Below, piece after piece: positions 3,199-31,981 of a DNA stretch of 64,000 nt. Position numbers and translations under genes: made by a program. Position 1 is the first letter of the stretch; each line of letters starts with the position of its first letter. Source of the stretch: Shigella phage Silverhawkium; sequence record MK562505, one strand, 5' to 3'. The notes beneath the pieces are model-generated. The model made no database searches. It worked only from the letters and a program-made list of their open reading frames with translations, and was not told where the DNA came from.

Positions 3199-5016
3199 TT
3201 AGATTTGGTTGTCAATAACTTTTCGTACATCACGAAGGTTAACATAACCATATGGTTGTGAATCACAGAAGACAAGATTCAGAGCGCATTGAGGGTTGTC
3301 AAGGATACCTTCAAACTCTGCAAATCCAAACCCATCTACAGCTTCTAACTTATCTCCATCCCACATTGGAACGACACCACCAAATGCAGACTTCTTCAGA
3401 CCACTATCTGTTTTCGGGTCTTTTGCCAGCATGATTTCTTCACCATCCATCTGAGCAAGTGTAGCCTTCACAGCAAATGCAAAGGTGTCACGAGTCAAGT
3501 ATTGGTAGGTGTAAGAACCTACACCAAACACTACGTTAGAGCTTGCAAAACCTTTTTCAGCAAGACGGCTAAGAATCTCTTCAGCACGTTCTAGCGTGAT
3601 AGAATCACCATAGATAAGACCAATATGCTCATCAAGAACTTTGTAGCCTTTGTCATTAACGGTTCCTCCAAAGATGTTATACAGTGTCTTGATAGCACCA
3701 TCAATTTCTGCTGTTAGCATTGGCTTGATAACCACGTTTCCAGTTTTATAAACATCTTTCAGGTTAACTGTATCAGCAACGTTGAAGTCTTCTGCATCAA
3801 CAACTAATTCATAACCCTCTGAGATTAACCATGCAGAGAACCCATAACCCATATCCGACATAGAGCAATTTAAGATTGCATCTAGTAAGAATGTGTTATT
3901 TGGAGAAATAGTTTGCATGTGCTTGTAATACATGCTCTTTGCATTCTCCCACTCAATAGCACGATAGCCAGTTACAATGTGTACAGGGTCACCGGAATCT
4001 GGACGGATTACCAGTTTGCCATCACGTTTCAATATTACTTCACGAAGTTCTGGAAGAATCTCTGTAACTGTACGCCAGAAGTTATAAGTGTCAGAAACTA
4101 TACTTGCAATACCAGTTGGATAAACATCAACTAACAGACGTTTAAAAGTGTCTACCTCACCACGCCAACGCATTGCATCTAGCAGGTTATCAGATTGCAT
4201 AAGATGCCAATCACTAACTTCTTTAGAGGTACTATTCCATGAAATGTTTGCACACATCACAGAGTGTTCAGTTGCTGGTACAGAGTTGCCAATATCACTG
4301 ATTGTCATAAACTGACCATAAGCACGTTTAGCAGTATACACAGCAGGGAAGCTGTCAGTACCTTTAAAGCTGGTCAAGTGACCTACAGCATTAAAAGCAT
4401 CATCTGTGAAGCCAGACATACCACGCATTGCAAAATCATGACACTGCCAAGGCAAGTGAAAGTCATTATCACAGGTTACATCAGCCCAATTCTTACAGAT
4501 ACGTTTGTAGTGCAGTGCAATAGTTGCAATGGTACAAGCTTTCCAGATTTCAGCAGAGAAAGCATCTTCCAGATAACCAGCTACCCAATGGAAACCTTCA
4601 ACAGTGTTTTTGAAGACAATCATTGGTACACGCATAGGCACTACAATACCTTCTTCAACAGAGTATACAGCAACTGGCAAGTATCCTAAATCGTGAAGTG
4701 CTTCCCAATGTTCACGACCAATGGCATTTTCACCAAGAACACCATTCATAACCTCTAAGATTTCATCGACAACTTCTTTCTTGTCGCGCTCAAAGAATGT
4801 TGCGTTCCAATGGTCTACCAGATAGTCTTTTACAAAACGTTGGATACCAAAAGCAACTACACCATCAACTTCCAAAGGACTGTTAAACCACTTATCACCA
4901 CGAGGTGTAAGGTTTAGCATCAGGTACTGTGTAGCACTTGGGTACTGGTAAATATGACCTGCCTTGTAAGCATCTGCGTTAAGACCTGCTGGGACTGCAT
5001 AGATTGATTTAGTCAT
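3199..5016 (-). CDS. nadV: nicotinamide phosphoribosyltransferase-like enzyme (NAMPT/NadV family; Namat-like alternative possible)
   Basis: 605 aa; N-terminus NADAYKAGHIYQYP resembles the conserved DSYKVTHYKQYP start of NAMPT enzymes; GAGAGAGA RBS. Confidence 0.8.
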   Translation of the reverse strand: MTKSIYAVPAGLNADAYKAGHIYQYPSATQYLMLNLTPRGDKWFNSPLEVDGVVAFGIQRFVKDYLVDHWNATFFERDKKEVVDEILEVMNGVLGENAIGREHWEALHDLGYLPVAVYSVEEGIVVPMRVPMIVFKNTVEGFHWVAGYLEDAFSAEIWKACTIATIALHYKRICKNWADVTCDNDFHLPWQCHDFAMRGMSGFTDDAFNAVGHLTSFKGTDSFPAVYTAKRAYGQFMTISDIGNSVPATEHSVMCANISWNSTSKEVSDWHLMQSDNLLDAMRWRGEVDTFKRLLVDVYPTGIASIVSDTYNFWRTVTEILPELREVILKRDGKLVIRPDSGDPVHIVTGYRAIEWENAKSMYYKHMQTISPNNTFLLDAILNCSMSDMGYGFSAWLISEGYELVVDAEDFNVADTVNLKDVYKTGNVVIKPMLTAEIDGAIKTLYNIFGGTVNDKGYKVLDEHIGLIYGDSITLERAEEILSRLAEKGFASSNVVFGVGSYTYQYLTRDTFAFAVKATLAQMDGEEIMLAKDPKTDSGLKKSAFGGVVPMWDGDKLEAVDGFGFAEFEGILDNPQCALNLVFCDSQPYGYVNLRDVRKVIDNQI

Positions 5017-5063: not shown

Positions 5064-5945
5064 TTAGTCGATATTTAGTACAGTCAATTGACCATAACGT
5101 GTTAAGCCACGGTCTTCAATATTGCCTAATGAGTTTGTAGTGTAGATGTGGTCAATACCATTGTCAAGTAGGTTCTCAATACCTTTAGAGAAAATACCAT
5201 GAGTGACATACAGTTCTACACGTTCTGCTCCAGCTTCACGAAGATACTTTGCAGCCTCAATGAAGGTTCGACCACCATCACAGATATCATCAAGAATCAT
5301 GACGGTCTTGCCAGTTAAATCTACATCATCAAGGATTCGCATACCAGTGATTTCACCAGTTTTCAGGTTGCGAACCTTAGACATTGTGATGTAGGGTTTC
5401 TCTACATCTTTTGCTGTTTCTTCGGTCTTCTTGGCTGCACCTGCATCTGGAGCTACCAAATAGTCAATACGGGAGTCACTTGCAATGTGTGATGCAACTT
5501 CCTTCTGAGGTATGCAATGGAAGCACTTAAATAGATTTTCTGCGACATTACTATGAACATCCAGAGAGCATACTGCATCAAATTCCATTGCATTCACCAG
5601 ATTGGCAAATACCTTGAGTGCTGCTGCATCACCTTTAAACATGTGACGGTCATAACGGGCATTTGGTAAGAACCCGAACAGAACAGTCTTCATAGCTGAA
5701 CCTTGAGGGATGAGTTTGTCAACTGCCTCTTTAGCTAAAGCTAAGGCAAACAAGGTGTCTTTGTCATAACCCTGCACAGTAAAGATGACATTCTCAATCT
5801 TACCAGCGAAGCTTTCAGCAAACTGTACAAAGTCTTCAGAGAAGTTACCACCAATCTCACCAGATGGAAACTGAATAATATTGAAGGCTTCTTCTAAATT
5901 ACCTTTAGTACTTGAGCTAATAAGAACTCGGATAGTTGTTTTCAT
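5064..5945 (-). CDS. prs: ribose-phosphate pyrophosphokinase-like enzyme (Prs family; Adps-like alternative possible)
   Basis: NARYDR, MILDDICDGGRT (PRPP-binding loop) and VTHGIFSKG motifs parallel E. coli Prs; ORF-track start is TTG at 5963, ATG with GAGAGAAA RBS at 5945. Confidence 0.8.
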   Translation of the reverse strand: MKTTIRVLISSSTKGNLEEAFNIIQFPSGEIGGNFSEDFVQFAESFAGKIENVIFTVQGYDKDTLFALALAKEAVDKLIPQGSAMKTVLFGFLPNARYDRHMFKGDAAALKVFANLVNAMEFDAVCSLDVHSNVAENLFKCFHCIPQKEVASHIASDSRIDYLVAPDAGAAKKTEETAKDVEKPYITMSKVRNLKTGEITGMRILDDVDLTGKTVMILDDICDGGRTFIEAAKYLREAGAERVELYVTHGIFSKGIENLLDNGIDHIYTTNSLGNIEDRGLTRYGQLTVLNID

Positions 5946-5955
5946 AATATTTCTC

Positions 5956-6234
5956 TCAATCAAAAGTTACGTTGGTTACTGCCATTGCAGATTTACATTT
6001 TGCAGGGTCTACAGTGTGATAGAGAACACTACAGTTTCCTGTGCTATCTGGTACAGGTTTGACCCATTGGTGTTTAATATTTGGTTCTCCAAAGTCTTTG
6101 TAGGAACCATCTGTATAATGGTCTACCATCTCAATAGCAAGTATCTCTGGGACGTGACCACGTATCATATACATCTCACAACCATTCCCACCTTCACTTA
6201 CTAATGGTAAGATTTCCCATCTCTCTTTAGCCAT
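5956..6234 (-). CDS. hypothetical protein (92 aa)
   Basis: ORF in operon. Confidence 0.35.
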   Translation of the reverse strand: MAKERWEILPLVSEGGNGCEMYMIRGHVPEILAIEMVDHYTDGSYKDFGEPNIKHQWVKPVPDSTGNCSVLYHTVDPAKCKSAMAVTNVTFD

Positions 6235-6742
6235 GATAAGTTGCCCTATAAACTGTCTCGAACTTCAACAAGAGAGATATTGCCAGAGTCACATACTCCT
6301 TGTCAAGCATTGGTGGCATATTATTTTTGATATATTCCTCCTGTTCTTCATAGGTCATCTTAGGAGTGTCCAGAATAGTTTCTCCCTGCTTCTGGTTATC
6401 AAGTTGAGTCTGGATAAACCAGTTAGAGCAATGATGCTCACCACCCTTTGTGACGGGCTTGTGGTGGCCTAATGTGAAGGCTTGCTTACCAGAGTATCTG
6501 CATAGTTTGTTAAGTGATGCAATAGTGTTCTTGACAACACAGTACTCGTATAGGTTGTCTATGGTGTAGTGAGGGTAGTATCTGAAGAGTGATTTGTCAC
6601 GGAAGCTTCCATGATTCCAAAGAACCATGTGATTAGAGTTTGAAGGGTCATATTTGTGGGAGTCTATAAATTCTTGACGCTCATCAAAATCGAGACGCAG
6701 AACAGACATTGCAGCAGAGCGCTTAAGATTTGCAAGATACAT
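6227..6742 (-). CDS. HNH-motif endonuclease-like protein
   Basis: 171 aa; GHHKPVTKGGEHHCSNW...N fits the HH-x2-P-x3-GG-x-N HNH core. Confidence 0.45.
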   Translation of the reverse strand: MYLANLKRSAAMSVLRLDFDERQEFIDSHKYDPSNSNHMVLWNHGSFRDKSLFRYYPHYTIDNLYEYCVVKNTIASLNKLCRYSGKQAFTLGHHKPVTKGGEHHCSNWFIQTQLDNQKQGETILDTPKMTYEEQEEYIKNNMPPMLDKEYVTLAISLLLKFETVYRATYHG

Positions 6743-6794: not shown

Positions 6795-7106
6795 TTACTG
6801 GATGGCTTTCAAGACTTTGATGAACTCATCTTCACCGATATTCTCTTTCAAAACTTCGGTAGGTTTGATGTAGTGGTTTAAGCAAACAATCTTCTTACCT
6901 TTTTTATCGTAAGTCAGCTTCAACTGTTTTAACTCTTTGTCATCATTGTCATGCTCATTGTAGAGCTTAACAGCCTCTTTGAAAGGGGTATACTTTCGGT
7001 CAAAACTCAGGAAGCCAGTACCACAATAGTGAGCATTGTGTTTGTCAAGCATGAACTGGCAAAGTGCTAAAATCTGAATCTTACGAGTATTGTGAATCTT
7101 TTCCAT
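6795..7106 (-). CDS. hypothetical protein (103 aa)
   Basis: ORF in operon. Confidence 0.4.
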   Translation of the reverse strand: MEKIHNTRKIQILALCQFMLDKHNAHYCGTGFLSFDRKYTPFKEAVKLYNEHDNDDKELKQLKLTYDKKGKKIVCLNHYIKPTEVLKENIGEDEFIKVLKAIQ

Positions 7107-7117
7107 TTGAATATCCC

Positions 7118-7376
7118 TTACTTGCTACGTTTACGGTTGCGAGCTTTTTTAGCTGCACGTTTAATTGCTGCTGCACCAGATTGACGATGAGCCTGTTTCT
7201 TACCACCTTTACCACGTCCAACGTAAATGTAAGGTTGCTGTTCAACTTGGCTTGCAAGAACCTGTGCAACTGCTGAAGCGTCCACACCAACTTGTTTACC
7301 AGTCATTGAAACGATTGCTGCCGCTTTTGCTAGTGCCTTTAAGAAACCAGCTTTCATATTACCTAAAATTCCCATT
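7118..7376 (-). CDS. small protein with strongly basic C-terminal tail
   Basis: internal ATG (MGILGNMK...) avoids overlap with the upstream ORF; C-terminus KGGKKQAHRQSGAAAIKRAAKKARNRKRSK. Confidence 0.4.
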
Positions 7377-22930: not shown

Positions 22931-23734
22931 TTACTGCTCAGTAGCTTGTGAGTTTTCACGTTCAGCCATTGCATCAAGCTGTTCACAGAACTCTTCACCA
23001 AAAGTAATTGCAATCTTTTCACGTACAATTGCTGCACCTGTCTGGGTGAACACTTCATAAAGCGCACCTACACTTGCACCTCCAGACATTTCTTCTACAA
23101 AGCTTGGTTCAGCATCGAGAATTTTTGATACCTCTAAAAGAGCATGGATACCCATCACACTAATCACAGCAGACAGGATTGACGTCAGTTTAATCTGACT
23201 AGTATCAATACCTGCTACAGACTCTGACGCTGCAACTTGCTCAAGTTTCTGCACTGAAGACTTAGCATACTCTTTAGCAACATCAGAGATGGCATCATAC
23301 CCCCAATCCAGCTTTTGATAGCGAGGTGAATGGTCATTCATGCGTTTCTCAAGAGAGGCCATCACAGCAGCAACTGGTGCTACAGTGGCATTTACCAGTT
23401 CTTCTTCGCTCATCTTGTCAAGCTCTTTTAAACCAGCCTCTGTGATTGCATTGTAACCACCTGCATACATCTCATTAAAGATGTACTCAGCAAAAGTGTC
23501 AAGGCCAATTACAATGGACTGTAAAGCGGCTTTACGATTGTCAAGCAAGAACTTAACCTCGTTTCGGAATTTCTCATCAGAGTCTACACCAGCCCCATCT
23601 GGACGGAGTGAGTCTGGGATTACTTTTCCAGACAGTGAATTACTACGCATAACTACAGCAAGTGTCTCCACTGTGTTAAGCAGGAAGTTCTCATTGATAC
23701 CTTTTTCAAGCAACACTTCATTTACAGTTTTCAT
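22931..23734 (-). CDS. hypothetical protein (267 aa); first 37 codons lie in a duplicated segment
   Basis: ORF; no recognisable motif. Confidence 0.45.
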   Translation of the reverse strand: MKTVNEVLLEKGINENFLLNTVETLAVVMRSNSLSGKVIPDSLRPDGAGVDSDEKFRNEVKFLLDNRKAALQSIVIGLDTFAEYIFNEMYAGGYNAITEAGLKELDKMSEEELVNATVAPVAAVMASLEKRMNDHSPRYQKLDWGYDAISDVAKEYAKSSVQKLEQVAASESVAGIDTSQIKLTSILSAVISVMGIHALLEVSKILDAEPSFVEEMSGGASVGALYEVFTQTGAAIVREKIAITFGEEFCEQLDAMAERENSQATEQ

Positions 23735-23877
23735 TTTTAATCTCTCTCATTTTTCCAGACAGTGAATTACTACGCATAACTACAGCAAGTGTCTCCACTG
23801 TGTTAAGCAGGAAGTTCTCATTGATACCTTTTTCAAGCAACACTTCATTTACAGTTTTCATTTTTAATCTCTCTCAT
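23624..23877. repeat. perfect 127-bp direct tandem duplication (23624-23750 and 23751-23877)
   Basis: base-by-base identity of the two copies; covers the 3' end of the upstream gene and the RBS/start plus 37 codons of the downstream gene. Confidence 0.9.
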
Positions 23878-24285
23878 TTTGTTAATAGTAAGTCGTGATA
23901 ATCTTAAACCTTCCTGTGAAGAGAAGTCAAGTCCTTTTTCAGACCTTGGGAAGTAATGCCTATCCCAAGTACTCTCTGCATCTTGAAGAAGTGTTGCTAG
24001 ACTAACTAAGTCTGTTCCGTTTTGCAACTTCTTTTTTAAGGTGTCTATCAAAAATGTTGTATCTTTTGCTTTACGCCTCTCAGAAGAAATCTCCTTCATA
24101 TGCTCAAAGACTGAGCACTTCATTTCTTCGTCATATCCTTCAGACAACTCTATCTCGTGCTGAACATCAACCATACGACGATGTTGATAAGCGTACTCCT
24201 TCTGTGATTCTAAGTCAAGCTTTTCGATTTTCTCTAGAGCCTCAATGAAATTCAAGATATCTGGGTGAACGTACATCCTCTGCAT
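23845..24285 (-). CDS. hypothetical protein (146 aa)
   Basis: first gene of the minus-strand operon next to the divergent promoter region. Confidence 0.45.
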   Translation of the reverse strand: MQRMYVHPDILNFIEALEKIEKLDLESQKEYAYQHRRMVDVQHEIELSEGYDEEMKCSVFEHMKEISSERRKAKDTTFLIDTLKKKLQNGTDLVSLATLLQDAESTWDRHYFPRSEKGLDFSSQEGLRLSRLTINKMREIKNENCK

Positions 24286-24376
24286 GATTGCCTCTGTTAA
24301 GTTTCTATAAAGAGTTTAATCTCTTATCTTTACGTATTCTATACGTATACTTTAAAGCTTTTAAAAGGCTATTAAA

Positions 24377-24434
24377 AGTCTTTTAAGGGTTTTAAAGAAT
24401 CTGTATAGTAAGTCTGTAAAGGGAGTCTATTAAG
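24377..24434. repeat. three direct repeats AGTCT-N-T-N-AAG in the divergent intergenic region
   Basis: agtcttttaag (24377-24387), agtctgtaaag (24411-24421), agtctattaag (24424-24434) in an AT-rich region. Confidence 0.5.
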
Positions 24435-24452
24435 ATAAAACCCACTTCGAAA

Positions 24453-24482
24453 AGATTAACACCTTGTCAAGTGCTTTGTCAA
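24453..24482 (-). promoter_or_regulatory. candidate leftward sigma70-like promoter (-35 TTGACA, -10 TAATCT)
   Basis: two tandem minus-strand TTGACA hexamers at 24465-24482. Confidence 0.3.
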
Positions 24483-24543
24483 CTTGCTTTTTCAAAAAAA
24501 GTAGAGTAGTGTATTAACCAGACTGATTTGAGAGGGAGTTAAA

Positions 24544-27243
24544 ATGGAAAATGTAGATTTTGAAAACTTGCATTTAGTTGGTGATACAGAAACTGATGGG
24601 TTGTTGCTTGAGTTCACAAAAGCTCACGTTATGGCCTTTGCAGATTACAAAGATGACAGTGACGAACCTCCTGTTTGGGTATTCACTGATGAACCTATCC
24701 TTGGTCACAAGTATACCAAATACATTAAAGGTGGCTTACGAGAAGGGGTTGAGTTTGCTTTAAAGGCAAAAAGACTTTGCATCCACAATGGTCTGGGTTA
24801 TGACTGGTGGGTGTTTAACCACATTGCACCTGATTTATGGAACTTTGATAATCCAAAGTGTAAACCTTGGGGTGATTTCTTCCAAGACTCACTTATTCAG
24901 TCTCGCGTTCAGTGGATGGATAGGCCAACACCAAAAGGCTACAAAGGTGCTCACGGATTGGCTGCGTGGGGTGCTCGTGTTGGTGTTCGTAAACCTGAGA
25001 TTGAAGAGTGGGGTGTATGGAATGCAGAAATCCTTAACCGTGTTGTTGAAGATATCCGCATTAACGCCAAAGCAAAAAGGGCTATGGATAATGAGTATCT
25101 AAAACTGAAGAAGTGTGGTGTTGATACTTATGAAACATACATGAGAGCCAAGGAAACATCTTTTTGGATGAGTCAGCAAGCAATCAATGGTTGGAAAGCT
25201 GATATCAACAAAATGAAAAGTTGTATCAAAGAGTTGGATAAGATGACTTCTGACTTAGCTTCTGAGGTAGAACCATTCTTACCACCAACTATCAAAACAA
25301 AAGGTAAAGTTACTGGTGAAGAATTTGCCAAGTCATGGAATGAGTACGTAGAGACATTTGGTGGTGCAGATGGTTTGAAGAGAATCACAAAGTACCCTAA
25401 GACAAAATATCGTCAGCAGGTTCGTAATGGTGAGATGCAAAGTTACCCTATCAAGCCATATGGAAAACCAACTACAAAGATTTTCAGCATTGAAAAAAGA
25501 AATTGCTACACTCCAACTAACACCGTTACTGGAGAAGAGTACAAAGAAGGTTTTGTAGCGATGAAAGATGCTCGTGCAGTTTGCAATGAGTTAAATGCTA
25601 AAGTGGATAAGAAGTGCAAAGATTGGAAGCCAGTTAAGACGGTGAAGATTGTGAAGTACTACAACAACCATGTAGTTAATCACTTTGGTCTTGAATCAAG
25701 TCGATACACAGGGTTGATTGATGCACCGTATACACCTATTGAGTTTGAAGTGTCACGAATGACTCAGGTGGCTGTTGTTAAGGATTACTTGAAGACTTTA
25801 GGTTGGATTCCTGATGATTGGAATTACAAGAAGGATTCAGATGGTCGTCCTGTGAAAGTTTGTCGATTCAAAGACAATAAGAAAATGATTCGCAAGCACC
25901 CAAAATGGGATGAAATGGTTGAGCGTTGTGGATTGAACTATGTTGAGCACGAAGGTATTCAGTACATTGAGCATAACTGGTCTGTCAAAAAGTACACAGA
26001 CTTGCTTGAGCCTTGCTTGATTCGTACTTCACCAAAACTGACTGAATCATCTTATGACACCATTGAAGGTGAACTTGGACAGAAGATTGCGAAGTACTAT
26101 ACTTTGATGCACCGACGTAGAACTATTGAGAACTCAAAAGATGATGAAAAGGGCTGGTTGAACCAGATTCGTCCAGATGGTCGTTTGAGTGCTGGTGCAA
26201 TGGTGTTTGGTACATCTACTGGACGTATGACGCAGTATGGTATTGTAAACGTACCTTCTGGTGCTGCCGTTTATGGGGAACCAATGAGGGCAGTTTGGAT
26301 TTGTGAAGAAGGGACAAACGTAGTCTCTGTAGATATGAACTCTGCACAGCTTGTTCTTCTTTGTAACTTTATGGGTGATAAGGATTTCACAAAGGCTGTA
26401 ACTGAAGGTAAAGAAGAGATTGAGTTTGTTCGTCAAGAAGATGGTCGTTACTATTGCAAACACTTTGATGAATACTTGAACCCTGAAGTTGACAAGTATC
26501 TTCGTTATGACCATGAAAATGACCTGTATGTAGTTTACTCAGGTACTGATGCTCATACACTGAACAGTATCTACTTTAGTTTGAATGATGAGCAGGATAT
26601 CTTGACTTGTCGTATGACTCAGGATGAAAATCTTCTTCACGAAATTAGTAAGGGTCGTAAGAAAGCTAAGAATGGTATCTATGCACTGTTGTTCGGTGCA
26701 GGTGATGAAAAGTTTGCTAAGACCATTAAAGCAGCTACCACTCAGGAAGGTGCATTAACTAAACAGACTTACTTTGTGCGTTTGCCGAAGATTAAGAAAC
26801 TGTTAGACAACTTAGAAGCCGACTTTAAAGCTACTAAGAAAGCACTGGAAGAGGTGTTTGGTAAAACTGCTGCTATCGCTAAAGGTGGTTTTGTTAAGGT
26901 TGCTGGTGCTTGGTTGTGGTGTAAATCTCCACATAAACTTTTGAACTATCTGTTGATGGGTTCAGAAGCACAAGTACAGAATGAAGCAATCAACCTTGCT
27001 TGTCGTCGTATGATTGATGAAGGGTTAATGAAACTGAATGGTCGTAAACCAGCTATTGGTGCTCGCCTACTCTGTGCTTACCACGATGAAACAAGCTGGG
27101 AATGTCCAGAGAGCATGACAGCAGAAGTCAAAGCAGTAACTGACTGGTACTACGGGCAAGCTTCTAAGAACTTAGGTCTTAAAAAAGATACCCTTGTAAC
27201 TGGTGCTGGTAAGGTTGGTAAAAGCTGGCTGGAAGTTCACTAA
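24544..27243 (+). CDS. DNA polymerase, family A, with 3'-5' exonuclease domain
   Basis: 899 aa; exo motif LVGDTETDGL; motif A-like VDMNSAQLV, motif B-like KNGIYALLFGAG, motif C-like YHDE; GAGGGAG RBS. Confidence 0.9.
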   Translation: MENVDFENLHLVGDTETDGLLLEFTKAHVMAFADYKDDSDEPPVWVFTDEPILGHKYTKYIKGGLREGVEFALKAKRLCIHNGLGYDWWVFNHIAPDLWNFDNPKCKPWGDFFQDSLIQSRVQWMDRPTPKGYKGAHGLAAWGARVGVRKPEIEEWGVWNAEILNRVVEDIRINAKAKRAMDNEYLKLKKCGVDTYETYMRAKETSFWMSQQAINGWKADINKMKSCIKELDKMTSDLASEVEPFLPPTIKTKGKVTGEEFAKSWNEYVETFGGADGLKRITKYPKTKYRQQVRNGEMQSYPIKPYGKPTTKIFSIEKRNCYTPTNTVTGEEYKEGFVAMKDARAVCNELNAKVDKKCKDWKPVKTVKIVKYYNNHVVNHFGLESSRYTGLIDAPYTPIEFEVSRMTQVAVVKDYLKTLGWIPDDWNYKKDSDGRPVKVCRFKDNKKMIRKHPKWDEMVERCGLNYVEHEGIQYIEHNWSVKKYTDLLEPCLIRTSPKLTESSYDTIEGELGQKIAKYYTLMHRRRTIENSKDDEKGWLNQIRPDGRLSAGAMVFGTSTGRMTQYGIVNVPSGAAVYGEPMRAVWICEEGTNVVSVDMNSAQLVLLCNFMGDKDFTKAVTEGKEEIEFVRQEDGRYYCKHFDEYLNPEVDKYLRYDHENDLYVVYSGTDAHTLNSIYFSLNDEQDILTCRMTQDENLLHEISKGRKKAKNGIYALLFGAGDEKFAKTIKAATTQEGALTKQTYFVRLPKIKKLLDNLEADFKATKKALEEVFGKTAAIAKGGFVKVAGAWLWCKSPHKLLNYLLMGSEAQVQNEAINLACRRMIDEGLMKLNGRKPAIGARLLCAYHDETSWECPESMTAEVKAVTDWYYGQASKNLGLKKDTLVTGAGKVGKSWLEVH

Positions 27244-28531: not shown

Positions 28532-29632
28532 ATGACAATTCTGTACAAACAAAATAAAGATGGCTCTTTTAACGTCTGGTCATGTGTTGCTGTAGGTGAC
28601 AAAGTCGTCACAACTTATGGTAAAGAAAATGGCAAGATGATGTTTGAAGAGTACACAGCAGAACCTAAGAACATCGGTAAAAAGAATGAGCGTAATGCTG
28701 AACAGCAAGCTCTCTTTGAAGTTGCTGCTAAGTACAAGAAGCAGGTTGACCGTAAAGGGTATGCTTACACAAAATCTGAAGCAGAGAATGTTGAAAAGGT
28801 TGGTGTACAGCTTGCTCAGGATGCTTCCAAGATAAGTCACAAGAAGTATCTGGTATTCCCTGCCGATGCTCAACCTAAACTTGACGGGGTTCGTTGCAGG
28901 ATTTCAAGAGATGCTGACTCAGAAAGTTTTACAGCATATTCTCGTGAGAACACGGTATACAACATTCCTGTAGAGTTGATTCCTGATGTTCTTCTTATGC
29001 TGAAGCTTCATAAAGATGTTGAAGATTTCGACGGTGAGATTTATGCTCATGGTTGGGACTTGGAAGATATTGTGTCTATGATTAAGAATGCTGACAATCC
29101 AGACCGTCACCTTCTTAAATTCTACTGGTATGATATCTGTGACAAGACTAAATCTTGGCCTGAGCGTCGTGAAGTTATTGATAATTCACCAATCGTTGAA
29201 CTCGGTGATGCTTGCAGGGTTGTACCTGTTCAGACAATCCGTGTTAACTCTTGGGAAGAATTTGATAATGCTCATGACAATTGGGTTAAACTCAAGTTTG
29301 AAGGGGCAATGTATCGGTCAATCTCACCAGATTCGTTCTATGAGTGTGGTCACCGTTCGTACTTCTTGATTAAACACAAGAAGATGCACACGCAGGAGTT
29401 CATAGTAACTGCTGTCAAGACTGATAAACGTGGTCACGGTAAGTTCGTTGTAGAGACCCTTCCTAACGTCTTTGTAGATGTTTCATGGAAAACTACCCAT
29501 GAGAAGAAGCAGCATCTTGCTGAACATCCTGAAGAGTTTATCGGGAAGCCTTTAACGGTTCAGTTCCAGAAGATGACTCGTAAGGGGTCTTTACAGTTCC
29601 CTGTTGGGCTTGTTATACGAGATTATGAATAG
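28532..29632 (+). CDS. ATP-dependent DNA ligase
   Basis: 366 aa; adenylation motif I KLDGVR. Confidence 0.8.
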   Translation: MTILYKQNKDGSFNVWSCVAVGDKVVTTYGKENGKMMFEEYTAEPKNIGKKNERNAEQQALFEVAAKYKKQVDRKGYAYTKSEAENVEKVGVQLAQDASKISHKKYLVFPADAQPKLDGVRCRISRDADSESFTAYSRENTVYNIPVELIPDVLLMLKLHKDVEDFDGEIYAHGWDLEDIVSMIKNADNPDRHLLKFYWYDICDKTKSWPERREVIDNSPIVELGDACRVVPVQTIRVNSWEEFDNAHDNWVKLKFEGAMYRSISPDSFYECGHRSYFLIKHKKMHTQEFIVTAVKTDKRGHGKFVVETLPNVFVDVSWKTTHEKKQHLAEHPEEFIGKPLTVQFQKMTRKGSLQFPVGLVIRDYE

Positions 29633-29640
29633 AGGTTAGC

Positions 29641-29790
29641 ATGTTTAGCGCAATTATCCTGTTTGTTTTTGTTGTTTTATCATTATCTTACTTCATAAGT
29701 AAACTGATAAGCATAACATACAAATCAGCCTTAGCCCTTACTCTGTTATCATTTGTAGTAAATGCAGTAGTCAGAGAATTTTTAATATAA
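29641..29790 (+). CDS. small hydrophobic membrane protein (49 aa), absent from the ORF track
   Basis: hand translation MFSAIILFVFVVLSLSYFISKLISITYKSALALTLLSFVVNAVVREFLI; GAGG RBS. Confidence 0.35.
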   Translation: MFSAIILFVFVVLSLSYFISKLISITYKSALALTLLSFVVNAVVREFLI

Positions 29791-29795
29791 AGTTG

Positions 29796-29823
29796 TTGAC
29801 ATAGAAAATTTGGTGAGTATACT
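29796..29823 (+). promoter_or_regulatory. sigma70-like promoter (-35 TTGACA, -10 TATACT)
   Basis: consensus hexamers with 16-nt spacer; transcript would run into the repeat modules. Confidence 0.55.
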
Positions 29824-29854
29824 GAGCAGCATAAACCAACGGGTACTCACCAGC

Positions 29855-30111
29855 ATCACTTAAGAGTCTTTGAAAAGGATTTTTAAGTGATATTTGGTAT
29901 GGTATGGTACGGTTCGGTGGTGTATGGTTTGGTTCGGTGGTGTAAGGTGTGGTCCGGTAAAGTATGGGTAGTTAGTCTCAGCTACATTAAAATGAGACTT
30001 ACCTTTTTAAAAGGTCTTGAAGAGGGTCTTTTAATAAGGTAGGGTAAGGTTAGGTAAGGTATGGTTGGGTTAGGTATGGGTGGATGGTAGTAGCCACGTT
30101 AAAAATCTACC
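29855..30111 (+). repeat. noncoding modular repeat region 1: two units of hairpin + phased GGTNN array + hairpin
   Basis: hairpin atcacttaa/ttaagtgat (29855-29891); 15 in-phase pentamers (29896-29970); hairpin agtctc/gagact (29974-29999); second array (30038-30088); hairpin ggtag/ctacc (30086-30111); no ORF of 60 aa or more. Confidence 0.8.
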
Positions 30112-30169
30112 AAGTTTCTAAAGAGTCTTCTGTTGAGGGTTCTTTATAAACAACTTAACAATAAACTAA

Positions 30170-30775
<606 letters not shown>

Positions 30776-30777
30776 TT

Positions 30778-31218
30778 ATGAATACAAAAGCATTAGCAGC
30801 AAAGTTTAGTTACGGTGATACTGTATCACACTCTGAGATGGACACCTTCTTAGGTATTGAGAAGCCAACTTATCAAGGTAACATTGTTAAGTACGAAGAT
30901 GAAATGAAGGCTTACGCGCTTACACGCCTAAATCGACTTGAGAAGTTTATTGAGAAGCTTCTTAAAGAAGAGAAGATTTATCTGGTTGCTTCAATGGGTG
31001 TTGGTTATCGCGTGGTTGAACCCAAACATCAAGCAACTATTGCAAAACGTAAAATGTCTAGTAAGATTGGTCGTGCTTTAAAGCAAGCCACTCAAGCGAT
31101 TGAGAATGTGAACACTATGGCACTGAGTCATCAAGAACGTTCACGACTGATTGAACAGCAAAACCATTTAGCTGCCATGAAAGCTAACATTAACAAACAA
31201 CGTAGAAAGCCTTTCTAA
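30778..31218 (+). CDS. hypothetical protein (146 aa) with basic C-terminus
   Basis: ORF 3 nt after the previous stop; C-terminus NINKQRRKPF. Confidence 0.5.
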   Translation: MNTKALAAKFSYGDTVSHSEMDTFLGIEKPTYQGNIVKYEDEMKAYALTRLNRLEKFIEKLLKEEKIYLVASMGVGYRVVEPKHQATIAKRKMSSKIGRALKQATQAIENVNTMALSHQERSRLIEQQNHLAAMKANINKQRRKPF

Positions 31219-31229
31219 GTTGATTAGGT

Positions 31230-31252
31230 AGCCTCTTCGGAGGCTCCTTTTT
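31230..31252 (+). terminator. rho-independent terminator after the cassette
   Basis: AGCCTC-ttcg-GAGGCT followed by a T-run. Confidence 0.6.
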
Positions 31253-31253
31253 A

Positions 31254-31512
31254 AAAGGTCTTTAAAAGGGTCTTTTAATAAGGCTCGGCAATGTTCGGCA
31301 TGGTCTGGTATAGTCCGGTGCTGTTCGGCGTGGTAAGGTGAGGTATGGGTAGTTAATCGGAGCTACATAAAAATTCGATTACATCACTTAAGAGTCTTTG
31401 AAAAGGGTTTTTAAGTGAGGTTTGGCTCAGTATGGTTATGTGTGGTGATGTGTGGTTCTGTAAGGTCATGTTTGGTATGGAAGGATGGCAGTAGCCTTAT
31501 AAAAAATCTGCC
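31254..31512 (+). repeat. noncoding modular repeat region 2: same module family as region 1 in a different order
   Basis: arrays at 31282-31351 and 31424-31488; hairpins aatcg/cgatt (31355-31380), atcacttaa/ttaagtga (31383-31418), ggcag/ctgcc (31487-31512). Confidence 0.8.
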
Positions 31513-31531
31513 AAATAAGCTATAAAATCTG

Positions 31532-31560
31532 TTGACAAGTCAGGTGTTATAGCTTATTTT
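31532..31560 (+). promoter_or_regulatory. candidate sigma70-like promoter (-35 TTGACA, 17-nt spacer, -10 TATTTT)
   Basis: upstream of the secreted-protein gene; TATACT also present further downstream. Confidence 0.35.
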
Positions 31561-31600
31561 TATACTCAAATGTATACAAAATTTTATATAGGAGGTAGTT

Positions 31601-31981
31601 ATGAAAAAGTTACTTGTTGGTGTCATTGCTCTTGGTATGAGTTTTAGTGCAGTGGCTATGAAGATGCCTGAAGCAAACTTTAGTGGTGTTGCTTTAGAAT
31701 CTTGTAAGATTGTACAGAAAATTGCATCAAATGCTGGAGAGTTAACTAAACCGTTGTCTGCTACGACTGTTCAAGAAATGACTGATAAGATGGTTGACTA
31801 CAACTACCATTTTATGGGAGATTACTATGACAGATTAGCAGATGAGATGGTCACTCAGAACGTTGACCTTCTTGATAGTAAAGGTATTGAGACTGTAGAA
31901 GATGTGAAAGACAACTTTATGCGTGAGTCTTTCAAAGGTGTTCAATACTTTATTGAAAATCGTCACTGCATGGGTTTATAA
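31601..31981 (+). CDS. putative secreted/periplasmic protein
   Basis: 126 aa; N-terminal signal peptide MKKLLVGVIALGMSFSAVA; AGGAGG RBS. Confidence 0.5.
   Translation: MKKLLVGVIALGMSFSAVAMKMPEANFSGVALESCKIVQKIASNAGELTKPLSATTVQEMTDKMVDYNYHFMGDYYDRLADEMVTQNVDLLDSKGIETVEDVKDNFMRESFKGVQYFIENRHCMGL

Follow-up and report, generated by a model that had tools for sequence, protein, structure and literature searches.

The closest described relative of the locus analysed here is VIPR (Viral Interference Programmable Repeat), which was reported for the phage SUSP1 in bioRxiv preprints of April-June 2026 (10.64898/2026.04.26.720920, 10.64898/2026.04.26.720927). Its protein component, Vipr, is a minimal RAMP of about 20 kDa which comprises an RRM core, a G-loop and a thumb and branches before Cas5, Cas6 and Cas7, and VIPR is proposed as an ancestor of the CRISPR RAMP effectors (10.64898/2026.04.26.720920, 10.64898/2026.04.26.720927). 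The RNA components, designated vrRNAs, are about 100 nt in length and are encoded in the intergenic regions around vipr and vap. They contain 9-16 YNNGG repeats with hypervariable NN, followed by an invariant 3' tail which forms a pseudoknot in the SUSP1 clade (10.64898/2026.04.26.720920). The cryo-EM structure of the SUSP1 Vipr-vrRNA complex reveals a right-handed helical filament with one protomer per GGY/NN repeat, in which GG and the pyrimidine are flipped into pockets of the protein (H17, D177, R138, W178, E71/M72, R179, C173) while NN is presented (10.64898/2026.04.26.720927). The series of NN dinucleotides pairs with one strand of dsDNA, every third base being skipped, which leads to an R-loop triplex; a PAM is not required and either strand may be targeted (10.64898/2026.04.26.720920, 10.64898/2026.04.26.720927). 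The outcome is transcriptional silencing, and the resulting protection is enhanced by vap1. Expression of the SUSP1 vrRNAs, their co-purification with Vipr and the silencing itself were demonstrated by small-RNA sequencing, pull-down, GFP and phage assays, and 18 of the 20 vrRNAs of the SUSP1 clade with identifiable targets match a satellite phage residing in E. coli genomes (10.64898/2026.04.26.720920).

VIPR shares with the crRNA-Cas7 backbone of Class 1 CRISPR systems (Cascade, Csm, Cmr) the RAMP fold including G-loop and thumb, the polymerisation of protomers on a guide RNA in a fixed register with periodic base flipping, and a variable guide capped by a conserved structured handle. It differs from them in a register of 5 nt, three bases of which are sequestered and two presented, compared to 6 nt with one base flipped in Class 1 CRISPR, as well as in a noncontiguous guide that skips 1 nt of the target between dinucleotides. 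Moreover, the VIPR type considered here does without repeat-spacer arrays, Cas1/Cas2 acquisition, PAM and nuclease.

Here we analyse a stretch of 64,000 nucleotides of Shigella phage Silverhawkium (sequence record MK562505), hereafter called the window, in which an initial annotation had pointed out two noncoding modules at 29855-30111. Almost certainly, the phage, a Mooglevirus/Felix-O1-like myophage, possesses a type II VIPR locus with four vrRNA genes, and these modules represent two of them.

Organisation of the locus

The locus is situated in the neighbourhood of replication genes (polymerase, ligase), and its features are compiled in Table 1. An ORF of at least 60 aa is absent between the ligase gene and the long gene that follows, as the initial annotation had stated, but a conserved 49-aa ORF sits in this gap. 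The consensus promoter which had been placed at 29796 is indeed found there (P1); its sequence is identical in most related loci, and the -10 hexamer region falls within an inverted repeat of 8 bp. Likewise, both tandem units, each composed of a head dyad, an array in strict 5-nt phase and a tail hairpin, are present with all their parts. What had been described as “region 1” is real, yet it makes up only half of the locus since two more units are located at 31246-31512. Two vrRNA blocks of two units each thus flank a two-gene cassette consisting of vipr and vap, and the four units of the window are mutually homologous from end to end.

Table 1. Features of the VIPR locus of the window and best matches of its four guides in satellite islands (L165, L166, L167) of E. 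coli genomes.
Feature	Position	Strand	Remarks
Ligase gene	28532..29632		5' of the vrRNA block
Conserved 49-aa ORF	29641..29790		phrog_22006; between ligase and P1
Noncoding stretch proper	about 29791-30187
Promoter P1, sigma-70-type	29796..29823	+	TTGACA-16-TATACT, 11/12 consensus matches; upstream of first vrRNA
Inverted repeat (8 bp) around P1 -10 region	29812-29819 / 29844-29851		GGTGAGTA / TACTCACC
Head 1	29855..29891	+	Imperfect dyad ATCACTTAAGAGTCTTTGAAAAGGATTTTTAAGTGAT; directly 5' of repeat tract 1
vrRNA1 repeat tract	29893..29965	+	15 NN dinucleotides in GGY/NN register: TT AT AT AC TC GG AT TT TC GG AA GT CC AA AT
vrRNA1 3' tail	29966..30003	+	H-type pseudoknot, S1 GTAG/CTAC, S2 AGTCTCA/TGAGACT; covariation
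T-run	30004-30008		Just 3' of vrRNA1 tail
Head 2	30002..30039	+	CCTTTTTAAAAGGTCTTGAAGAGGGTCTTTTAATAAGG; holds locus-specific box GTCTT-N4-AGGGTCTTTT
vrRNA2 repeat tract	30037..30081	+	About 9-10 repeats; NN series AA AG AA TA AA AT TG TA AT TG
vrRNA2 3' tail	30078..30111	+	Pseudoknot, S1 GTGG/CCAC, S2 GGTAG/CTACC; covariation
Head 3	30118..30151	+	Box GTCTTCTGTTGAGGGTTCTTTATAAAC; immediately 5' of vipr, not followed by an array
vipr	30188..30775	+	195 aa, RAMP family; 99% identity to PDB 36pp; phrog_4652
Putative vap (vipr-accessory protein, vap1 position)	30778..31218	+	146 aa; located 3' of vipr; phrog_5926
Predicted intrinsic terminator after vap	31230..31252	+	AGCCTCTTCGGAGGCT then T-run; from sequence
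vrRNA3 unit	31246..31382	+	Head 31246-31283, tract about 31281-31346 (13 NN), tail 31347-31382
vrRNA4 unit	31383..31512	+	Head 31383-31419, tract about 31419-31478 (12 NN), tail 31479-31512
Promoter-like site P2	31532..31560	+	TTGACA-17-TATTTT; before next gene 31601..31981; conserved in related loci
vrRNA1 target	L167 6410-6453	-	27/30 NN; CDS 6029..6739
vrRNA2 target			15/20 NN; none above chance (four satellites)
vrRNA3 target	L167 5221-5258	-	21/26 NN; CDS 5167..5490
vrRNA4 target	L165 6961-6995, L166 6865-6899	-	22/24 NN; CDS 6874..7146 (L165)

The phased arrays are real and far beyond chance. Scanning the roughly 64,000 positions of the window for at least six GG per ten phased pentamers singles out only four arrays (29.9, 30.0, 31.3 and 31.4 kb, the latter two within 31281-31495), all of them on the + strand, with GG-phase scores of 6-9, while the maximum on the - strand amounts to 4. 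The 5-nt periodicity reported initially is thereby substantiated.

Each vrRNA as well as vipr is preceded by a head box of the form GTCTT-N4-6-AGGGTYYTTW. Within the 64 kb this box is confined to the VIPR locus, where four exact sites and one variant are found compared to 0.01 expected. Head 1 may act as a vrRNA promoter or determine the 5' end, while head 3 is likely to drive or regulate the vipr-vap operon. The box may serve as a dedicated promoter/operator which co-regulates guides and protein. The accessible text of the VIPR preprints contains no discussion of vrRNA promoters or of 5'-end formation.

A comparison of the region 29400-31800 with the 4227 covariance models of Rfam yielded chance-level matches only, all of them far under the gathering scores. 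In the annotation of phage wV8 part of the units is labelled “DR_4” with no function given.

Vipr and Vap

The protein encoded at 30188-30775 shows its 99% identity over the full length to PDB 36pp_D, termed “SUSP1 Vipr protein” (E 1e-129). The RNA-contact residues H17, E71, M72, R138, C173, D177, W178 and R179 are all retained in the Vipr of the window; the sole listed contact residue which is changed, Thr175, is a valine both in the window Vipr and in the PDB chain. The Vipr proteins of Sf17, Sf19 and Moogle are 100% identical to that of the window. The identity of 99% goes along with a matching repeat code, and the element is already known. The initial annotation had not recognised it as a described element, a statement overtaken by the preprints of April-June 2026 on SUSP1.

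The vap gene starts 3 nt after vipr and lies directly downstream of it in all vipr-positive loci whose sequence reaches far enough, including the contig L035. Searches of its 146-aa product against Pfam and PDB gave no match, and the assignment as vap1, which is made by position only, is putative.

Homologues of Vipr also emerge from the repeats themselves. Scanning IMG/VR for exact occurrences of (GGTNN)6GGT, with microsatellites and coding repeats set aside, led, among the matches listed, to many unrelated viral contigs which harbour arrays of high NN diversity co-oriented with the genes; in these listed matches the arrays often begin within a few nt of an upstream stop codon. In several unrelated metagenomic contigs the stop codon from which the array starts belongs to a Vipr homologue of about 190-225 aa. 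These ORFs are homologous to that at 30188-30775 and carry the C-terminal G-loop GxGDFRPxxGxFGxF. A scan of IMG/VR with a 17-mer of the head turned up eight loci which were matched by chance alone.

Repeat code and comparison with related phages

The window belongs to the Ounavirinae, its best DNA matches being the Shigella phages Sf17-19 (89%) and the Citrobacter phage Moogle (84%). It was compared with related loci, roughly 35 in number, drawn from GenBank phages as well as from IMG/VR and comprising 100 arrays of which 75 are distinct; searches with a profile of the unit gave between 0 and 6 copies in each related phage. The logo calculated from 860 pentamers of the 75 distinct arrays corresponds to the motif D-G-Y-N-N. 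Position 1 is occupied by G in 80%, T in 12%, A in 8% and C in 0.1% of the pentamers, position 2 by G in 96%, and position 3 by T in 88% and C in 11% (Y in 99%), while hardly any preference is seen at positions 4 and 5 (0.07 and 0.08 bit, respectively). The conserved triplet of the initial annotation is hence confirmed as such, although it is not strictly GGT but GGY. The arrays extend over 42-94 nt with 8 to 19 repeats, and for each head/tail type the distance from head to tail is constant modulo 5 in 73/75 arrays. Hardly any variation is seen in heads and tails, whereas the NN dinucleotides are almost wholly different even among close relatives.

Four sequence classes of tails can be distinguished, and the differences between them compensate one another within two interleaved helices, i.e. 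in a pseudoknot. Helix S1 (4 bp) is 100% paired, with 3/4 pairs changed on both sides, and in S2 (7 bp) 6/7 pairs are changed on both sides. Taken over the entire pseudoknot, 93.5% of the cells are paired and 9/11 pairs show two-sided changes (slid-partner controls: 27-37%), a covariation which, with just four sequence classes, reflects few independent events. Both the phase and the hairpins, which according to the initial annotation should recur in related phages, are thus conserved. In the stem variant AATCGGA/TTCGATT a G.U pair is formed on the + strand where the other strand would have an A.C mismatch, which points to a plus-strand RNA. By analogy with the small RNAs of SUSP1, the units probably specify a noncoding plus-strand RNA, as had been suggested.

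This strand preference also bears on the view that the arrays act at the level of DNA, namely as origin iterons, as an R-loop origin downstream of P1, as a pac site or as a recombination hotspot. Such a role would be in line with the neighbourhood of polymerase and ligase genes and with a G-rich transcript downstream of a consensus promoter. It would also agree with the shuffling of units between slots across phages, where one and the same array allele can occupy different slots, and with the breaks which several assemblies show within the locus, that of warpig at the units being repeat-induced. However, the close relative L027, a 90-kb contig which is one of two loci returned by a search with the p155 homologue, lacks the entire locus; its ligase gene and small ORF run straight into the next gene with zero units in between. 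The locus is therefore dispensable, and its copy number of 0 to 6 speaks against a DNA-level function as well. Furthermore, the NN positions are not depleted of C, so that the G-richness is limited to the GGY triplet, and the stem variant described above would be mispaired on the strand on which an A.C mismatch arises. A genome terminus or pac site is out, since experimentally mapped ends are available for UAB_Phi87 (PMC4837284), whose record begins close to the tRNA cluster, some 30 kb distant from the locus, and the breaks at the units are repeat-induced. Iterons, an origin or a recombination hotspot, which the initial annotation had put forward as its second reading, are accordingly very improbable, given the relative without the locus and the G.U pair on the + strand.

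Mobile intergenic modules are reportedly known from T4-type phages in the form of the PeSLs, promoter/stem-loop cassettes described by Arbiol, Comeau and Krisch in 2010. Common to them and the locus of the window are repeated intergenic regulatory modules which flank accessory ORFs and seemingly mediate modular shuffling; units of the window type are found in varying slots and numbers depending on the phage, with the cassette being either present or absent. PeSLs, however, consist of promoter and hairpin only, with neither a phased tract nor a cognate RNA-binding protein.

With the VIPR locus of SUSP1, that of the window shares, besides the nearly identical Vipr, the position of vap, the GGY/NN code, the classes of tail pseudoknot, the genomic slot between ligase and the p155 homologue, and an E. 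coli satellite as target, the 1-nt skip falling on the wobble position in both. They differ in the distribution of the vrRNAs around vipr-vap, which is 1 + 3 in SUSP1 (and in L035) compared to 2 + 2 in the window, in the guide (NN) alleles, and in the phage itself, which is Mooglevirus-like and not SUSP1.

Guide targets

The satellite was found by blastn of the baseplate gene, which lies beside the tape-measure gene of the window, against complete E. coli genomes. A copy of this gene, 73-77% identical, is carried by 474/5426 genomes. Four satellite islands of 11-15 kb each were considered, in which recombinases are encoded along with tape-measure and baseplate proteins and which are sited in yecE/DUF72 or beside dinB. 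The NN series of the 75 distinct arrays, restricted to guides of at least 10 NN, were scanned against these four islands (50 kb). If one nucleotide of the target is skipped after each dinucleotide, 33 guides match at 80% of NN or above, while not a single guide does so with a skip of 0, 2 or 3 nt. The 1-nt skip likewise yields no guide at this threshold in flanking chromosome of equal length, and just one if the order of the NN is shuffled.

For vrRNA1, vrRNA3 and vrRNA4 of the window the scores given in Table 1 are reached by 0/300 shuffles of NN order, and for all three guides the skipped base, as derived from the coordinates, is codon position 3. The best match of vrRNA2 in the four satellites is no better than those of shuffles, and its 16 specified AT-rich bases occur in IMG/VR, among the matches listed, with chance-level abundance. 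In the 64 kb of the window itself no self-target is present, the four guides matching to 0.75 at most.

These matches weigh heavily against a TRAP-like attenuator or decoy, in which GGU repeats would wrap a ring protein in order to titrate it or to control a hairpin terminator, with spacers devoid of information. A triplet with a free spacer of 2 nt does resemble TRAP sites, hairpins follow the arrays, and in a jumbo-phage contig arrays are located directly before strong intrinsic terminators. As in the (G/U)AG-NN(N) sites of the Bacillus trp leader, one subunit is accommodated per triplet, with spacers of about 2 nt, the first base of the triplet is the most tolerant one, and the array adjoins a hairpin. 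The adjoining protein, however, is a RAMP which forms an open helical filament unrelated to the 11-meric TRAP ring, and Pfam reveals no TRAP-family domain in seven neighbouring proteins. In addition, repeat numbers of 8 to 19 are unfit for a closed ring, and the NN series match coding sequences of the satellite at 81-100% only with the 1-nt skip. The spacers of the window hence carry information, and the output would be DNA targeting as opposed to attenuation. From the TRAP paradigm invoked by the initial annotation, the binding of one subunit per triplet with a 2-nt spacer survives, as seen in the cryo-EM structure from SUSP1, while the ring is replaced by a helical filament of a RAMP with Cas7-like fold. 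The notion of a titrating decoy has to be given up, as the supposed spacers, by analogy with SUSP1, form a functional noncontiguous guide which reads dsDNA with a 1-nt skip. A TRAP-binding RNA in the strict sense is dismissed on account of the triplet, a GGY spaced by exactly 2 nt in place of (G/U)AG spaced by 2-3 nt, and of its RAMP filament binder. Overall, we regard a TRAP-like function as having hardly any chance of being correct.

Least probable of all is a role of self-structure, be it tandem two-tier G-quadruplexes (similar to the thrombin aptamer, GGTTGGTGTGGTTGG) stabilising an RNA, as GG every 5 nt could suggest, or a C-rich, G-poor antisense Rho-loading site, as the G-poor minus strand (NNACC)n could suggest, since position 1 is other than G in 20% of the pentamers, G-quadruplexes do not require the pyrimidine at position 3, the best-conserved dinucleotide of the minus strand is RC instead of the YC of Rho, and neither structure accounts for the matches of NN to targets.

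The position-specific logo and, subsequently, the NN-to-target matches also eliminated a generic R-loop and a pairing with tRNA 3' ends (RCC) of the kind seen with RNase P L15 or the T-box. A CRISPR array was discarded because the units are built as head, tract and tail without alternation of repeats and spacers, and no cas genes were detected nearby.

Proposed function of the locus

The reading of the locus as VIPR is consistent with a minimal RAMP gene beside long intergenic regions, the presence of vap, a tract within the range of 9-16 repeats, the tail pseudoknot and, apart from vrRNA2, targets matched with a 1-nt skip. Small-RNA transcription, formation of an RNP, filament and triplex structure, and silencing are transferred from the SUSP1 preprints, and the functional roles assigned to the locus of this phage are by analogy carried over from there. 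Each unit would accordingly give rise to a + strand RNA of about 100 nt consisting of 9-15 GGY/NN pentamers and the invariant pseudoknotted 3' tail. [quoted passage not shown] Joined to one another, the NN dinucleotides would then pair with one strand of dsDNA in the form NNxNNx..., independently of a PAM and on either strand, and this binding would silence transcription. The natural targets are presumably genes of a small satellite in E. coli chromosomes which carries Ounavirinae-like tape-measure and baseplate genes.

Orphan vrRNAs

While vipr is present in about 117 Ounavirinae records, units are found in 227-248. About half of the related Felix-O1-like phages harbour one or two intact units between the same promoters but neither vipr nor vap, from which it follows that units can persist without a Vipr encoded in cis. 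UAB_Phi87 is a case in point: neither vipr nor vap occurs anywhere in its genome, although two units are kept, and one orphan guide of this phage matches a satellite gene at 22/22 NN. At a threshold of at least 80% NN, 3/10 guides from vipr-less loci have a match compared to 30/61 from vipr-positive loci.

The published model leaves the persistence of units in vipr-less phages unexplained. It is conceivable, although we consider it rather doubtful, that orphan vrRNAs are functional in that they are loaded in trans by the Vipr of a co-infecting relative or of another element, or in that they act as sponges which disarm the Vipr of a competitor. Alternatively, they may be remnants. Within their accessible parts, the VIPR preprints address neither a function of orphan vrRNAs nor co-regulation via the head box.

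Conclusions

For the stretch 29855-30111 we recommend the annotation vrRNA1 and vrRNA2 (type II VIPR locus); there is no need to follow it up as an unknown. The raw sequence alone was sufficient to reveal the signature of a class of RNA-guided systems which has since been published independently as VIPR. The element is already known and explained, as the published model was the SUSP1 clade, in which loci with a nearly identical Vipr are included. To this the present analysis contributes, from its own data, the repeat code, the quantisation of phase, the covariation of the tails, the identity of Vipr and the satellite matches. The latter replicate the 1-nt-skip rule independently, with different tools and on a small data set, and provide predicted targets for 3/4 guides of the phage; a natural relative without any locus is a further addition. 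The biology of VIPR is remarkable and already explained, and the residual value of our findings lies in this replication, in the target predictions and in the question of the orphan vrRNAs, which are common in vipr-less relatives and represent a testable loose end.

Conserved elements upstream of the vrRNA units and vipr

A box of the form GTCTT-N4-6-AGGGTYYTTW is located upstream of every vrRNA as well as of the vipr gene. The window contains four exact copies and one variant of it, against an expectation of 0.01, and across the 64 kb no further copy is present outside the VIPR locus. The box may represent a locus-specific promoter or operator. In addition, an 8-bp inverted repeat (GGTGAGTA ... 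TACTCACC), whose arms are 24 bp apart and whose left arm contains the -10 region of the promoter P1, is kept in most of the related phages examined; it may function as an operator or as a leader hairpin.

We would like to note that repeats are also observed elsewhere in the window. A minus-strand ORF has its ribosome-binding site and initial codons doubled by a perfect tandem duplication of 127 bp (2.0 copies, 100% identity), which could be either genuine and recent or an artefact of assembly. Just 5' of the DNA polymerase gene lies a cluster of short tandem repeats whose periods are 9-13 bp (TTTAAAGCT, GCTTTTAAAAG, TCTGTAAAGGAAG, TTGTCAACGTGCT). This is the point of divergence between the blocks of minus-strand and plus-strand genes, and the cluster is therefore a candidate for a regulatory region or an origin.

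Coordinates and records of the described features
Feature	Location	Record
GTCTT-N4-6-AGGGTYYTTW box sites	29867, 30014-30032, 30125-30145, 31258-31276, 31394-31413	window
Inverted repeat at P1	29812-29851	window
127-bp tandem duplication	23624-23880	window
ORF with doubled start region	22931..23734 (minus strand)	window
Short tandem repeat cluster	24327-24495	window
DNA polymerase gene	24544..27243	window
Satellite copies L164-L167		E. coli NZ_CP151045, NZ_CP013663, NZ_AP045169, NZ_CP033401
GGYNN array block L047	6114-6498	IMG/VR metagenomic contig
GGYNN array block L163	3396-3843	IMG/VR metagenomic contig
Locus without VIPR (L027)	3700-4010	IMGVR_UViG_2974556886_000001

vrRNA units without vipr and their satellite target

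Many Felixounaviruses (loci L019, L022, L023, L024, L030, L032, L033 and L007) possess one or two intact vrRNA units, placed between the same two promoters, while vipr and vap are absent. For one of them, UAB_Phi87, the whole genome was searched (L168 and L169) and contains no vipr or vap homologue; nevertheless, when the 1-nt skip is applied, a satellite gene fits its guide L030_712 at every NN position (22 of 22). Some deposited Felixounavirus assemblies open within vrRNA units, as at the record ends of MN850637 (phage warpig) and in MN850580 (momo); the probable cause is that the heads and tails, being repeated, make assemblers break there. The unit counts in records opened in this way may be collapsed.

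Of 5426 complete E. coli genomes, 474 carry the targeted satellite, an island of 11-15 kb which is inserted inside yecE (DUF72) or adjoins dinB. Besides tape-measure and baseplate genes of the Ounavirinae-like kind, it encodes serine recombinases together with an HNH endonuclease or a methyltransferase; none of the four copies L164-L167 harbours vipr, vap or a vrRNA array.

Distribution of the arrays and dispensability of the cassette

Tandem GGYNN array blocks are also present in unrelated metagenomic viral contigs of IMG/VR (L047, L163, L153, L162, L143, L130 and L129). The end of each is marked by a fixed punctuation, either GGCAG or GGCTAATGG, and the blocks are often situated directly 3' of a Vipr homologue. 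These contigs probably represent further VIPR types, in which the arrays are built differently. The 189-kb jumbo-phage contig IMGVR_UViG_3300029288_001872 (L051-L054) contains at least eight GGYNN arrays, spread over intergenic gaps that follow one another. Four of these gaps, in L054, were examined: in each the array lies 3' of the stop codon of the upstream gene, in most cases no more than about 20 nt away, and a hairpin closes it; in three of these cases a T-run comes after the hairpin.

From the Mooglevirus-like phage represented by L027, whose p155 homologue shares 94% identity with that of the window, the VIPR locus is entirely absent: ligase, a small ORF and one promoter are followed directly by the next gene. 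The whole VIPR cassette is therefore dispensable.
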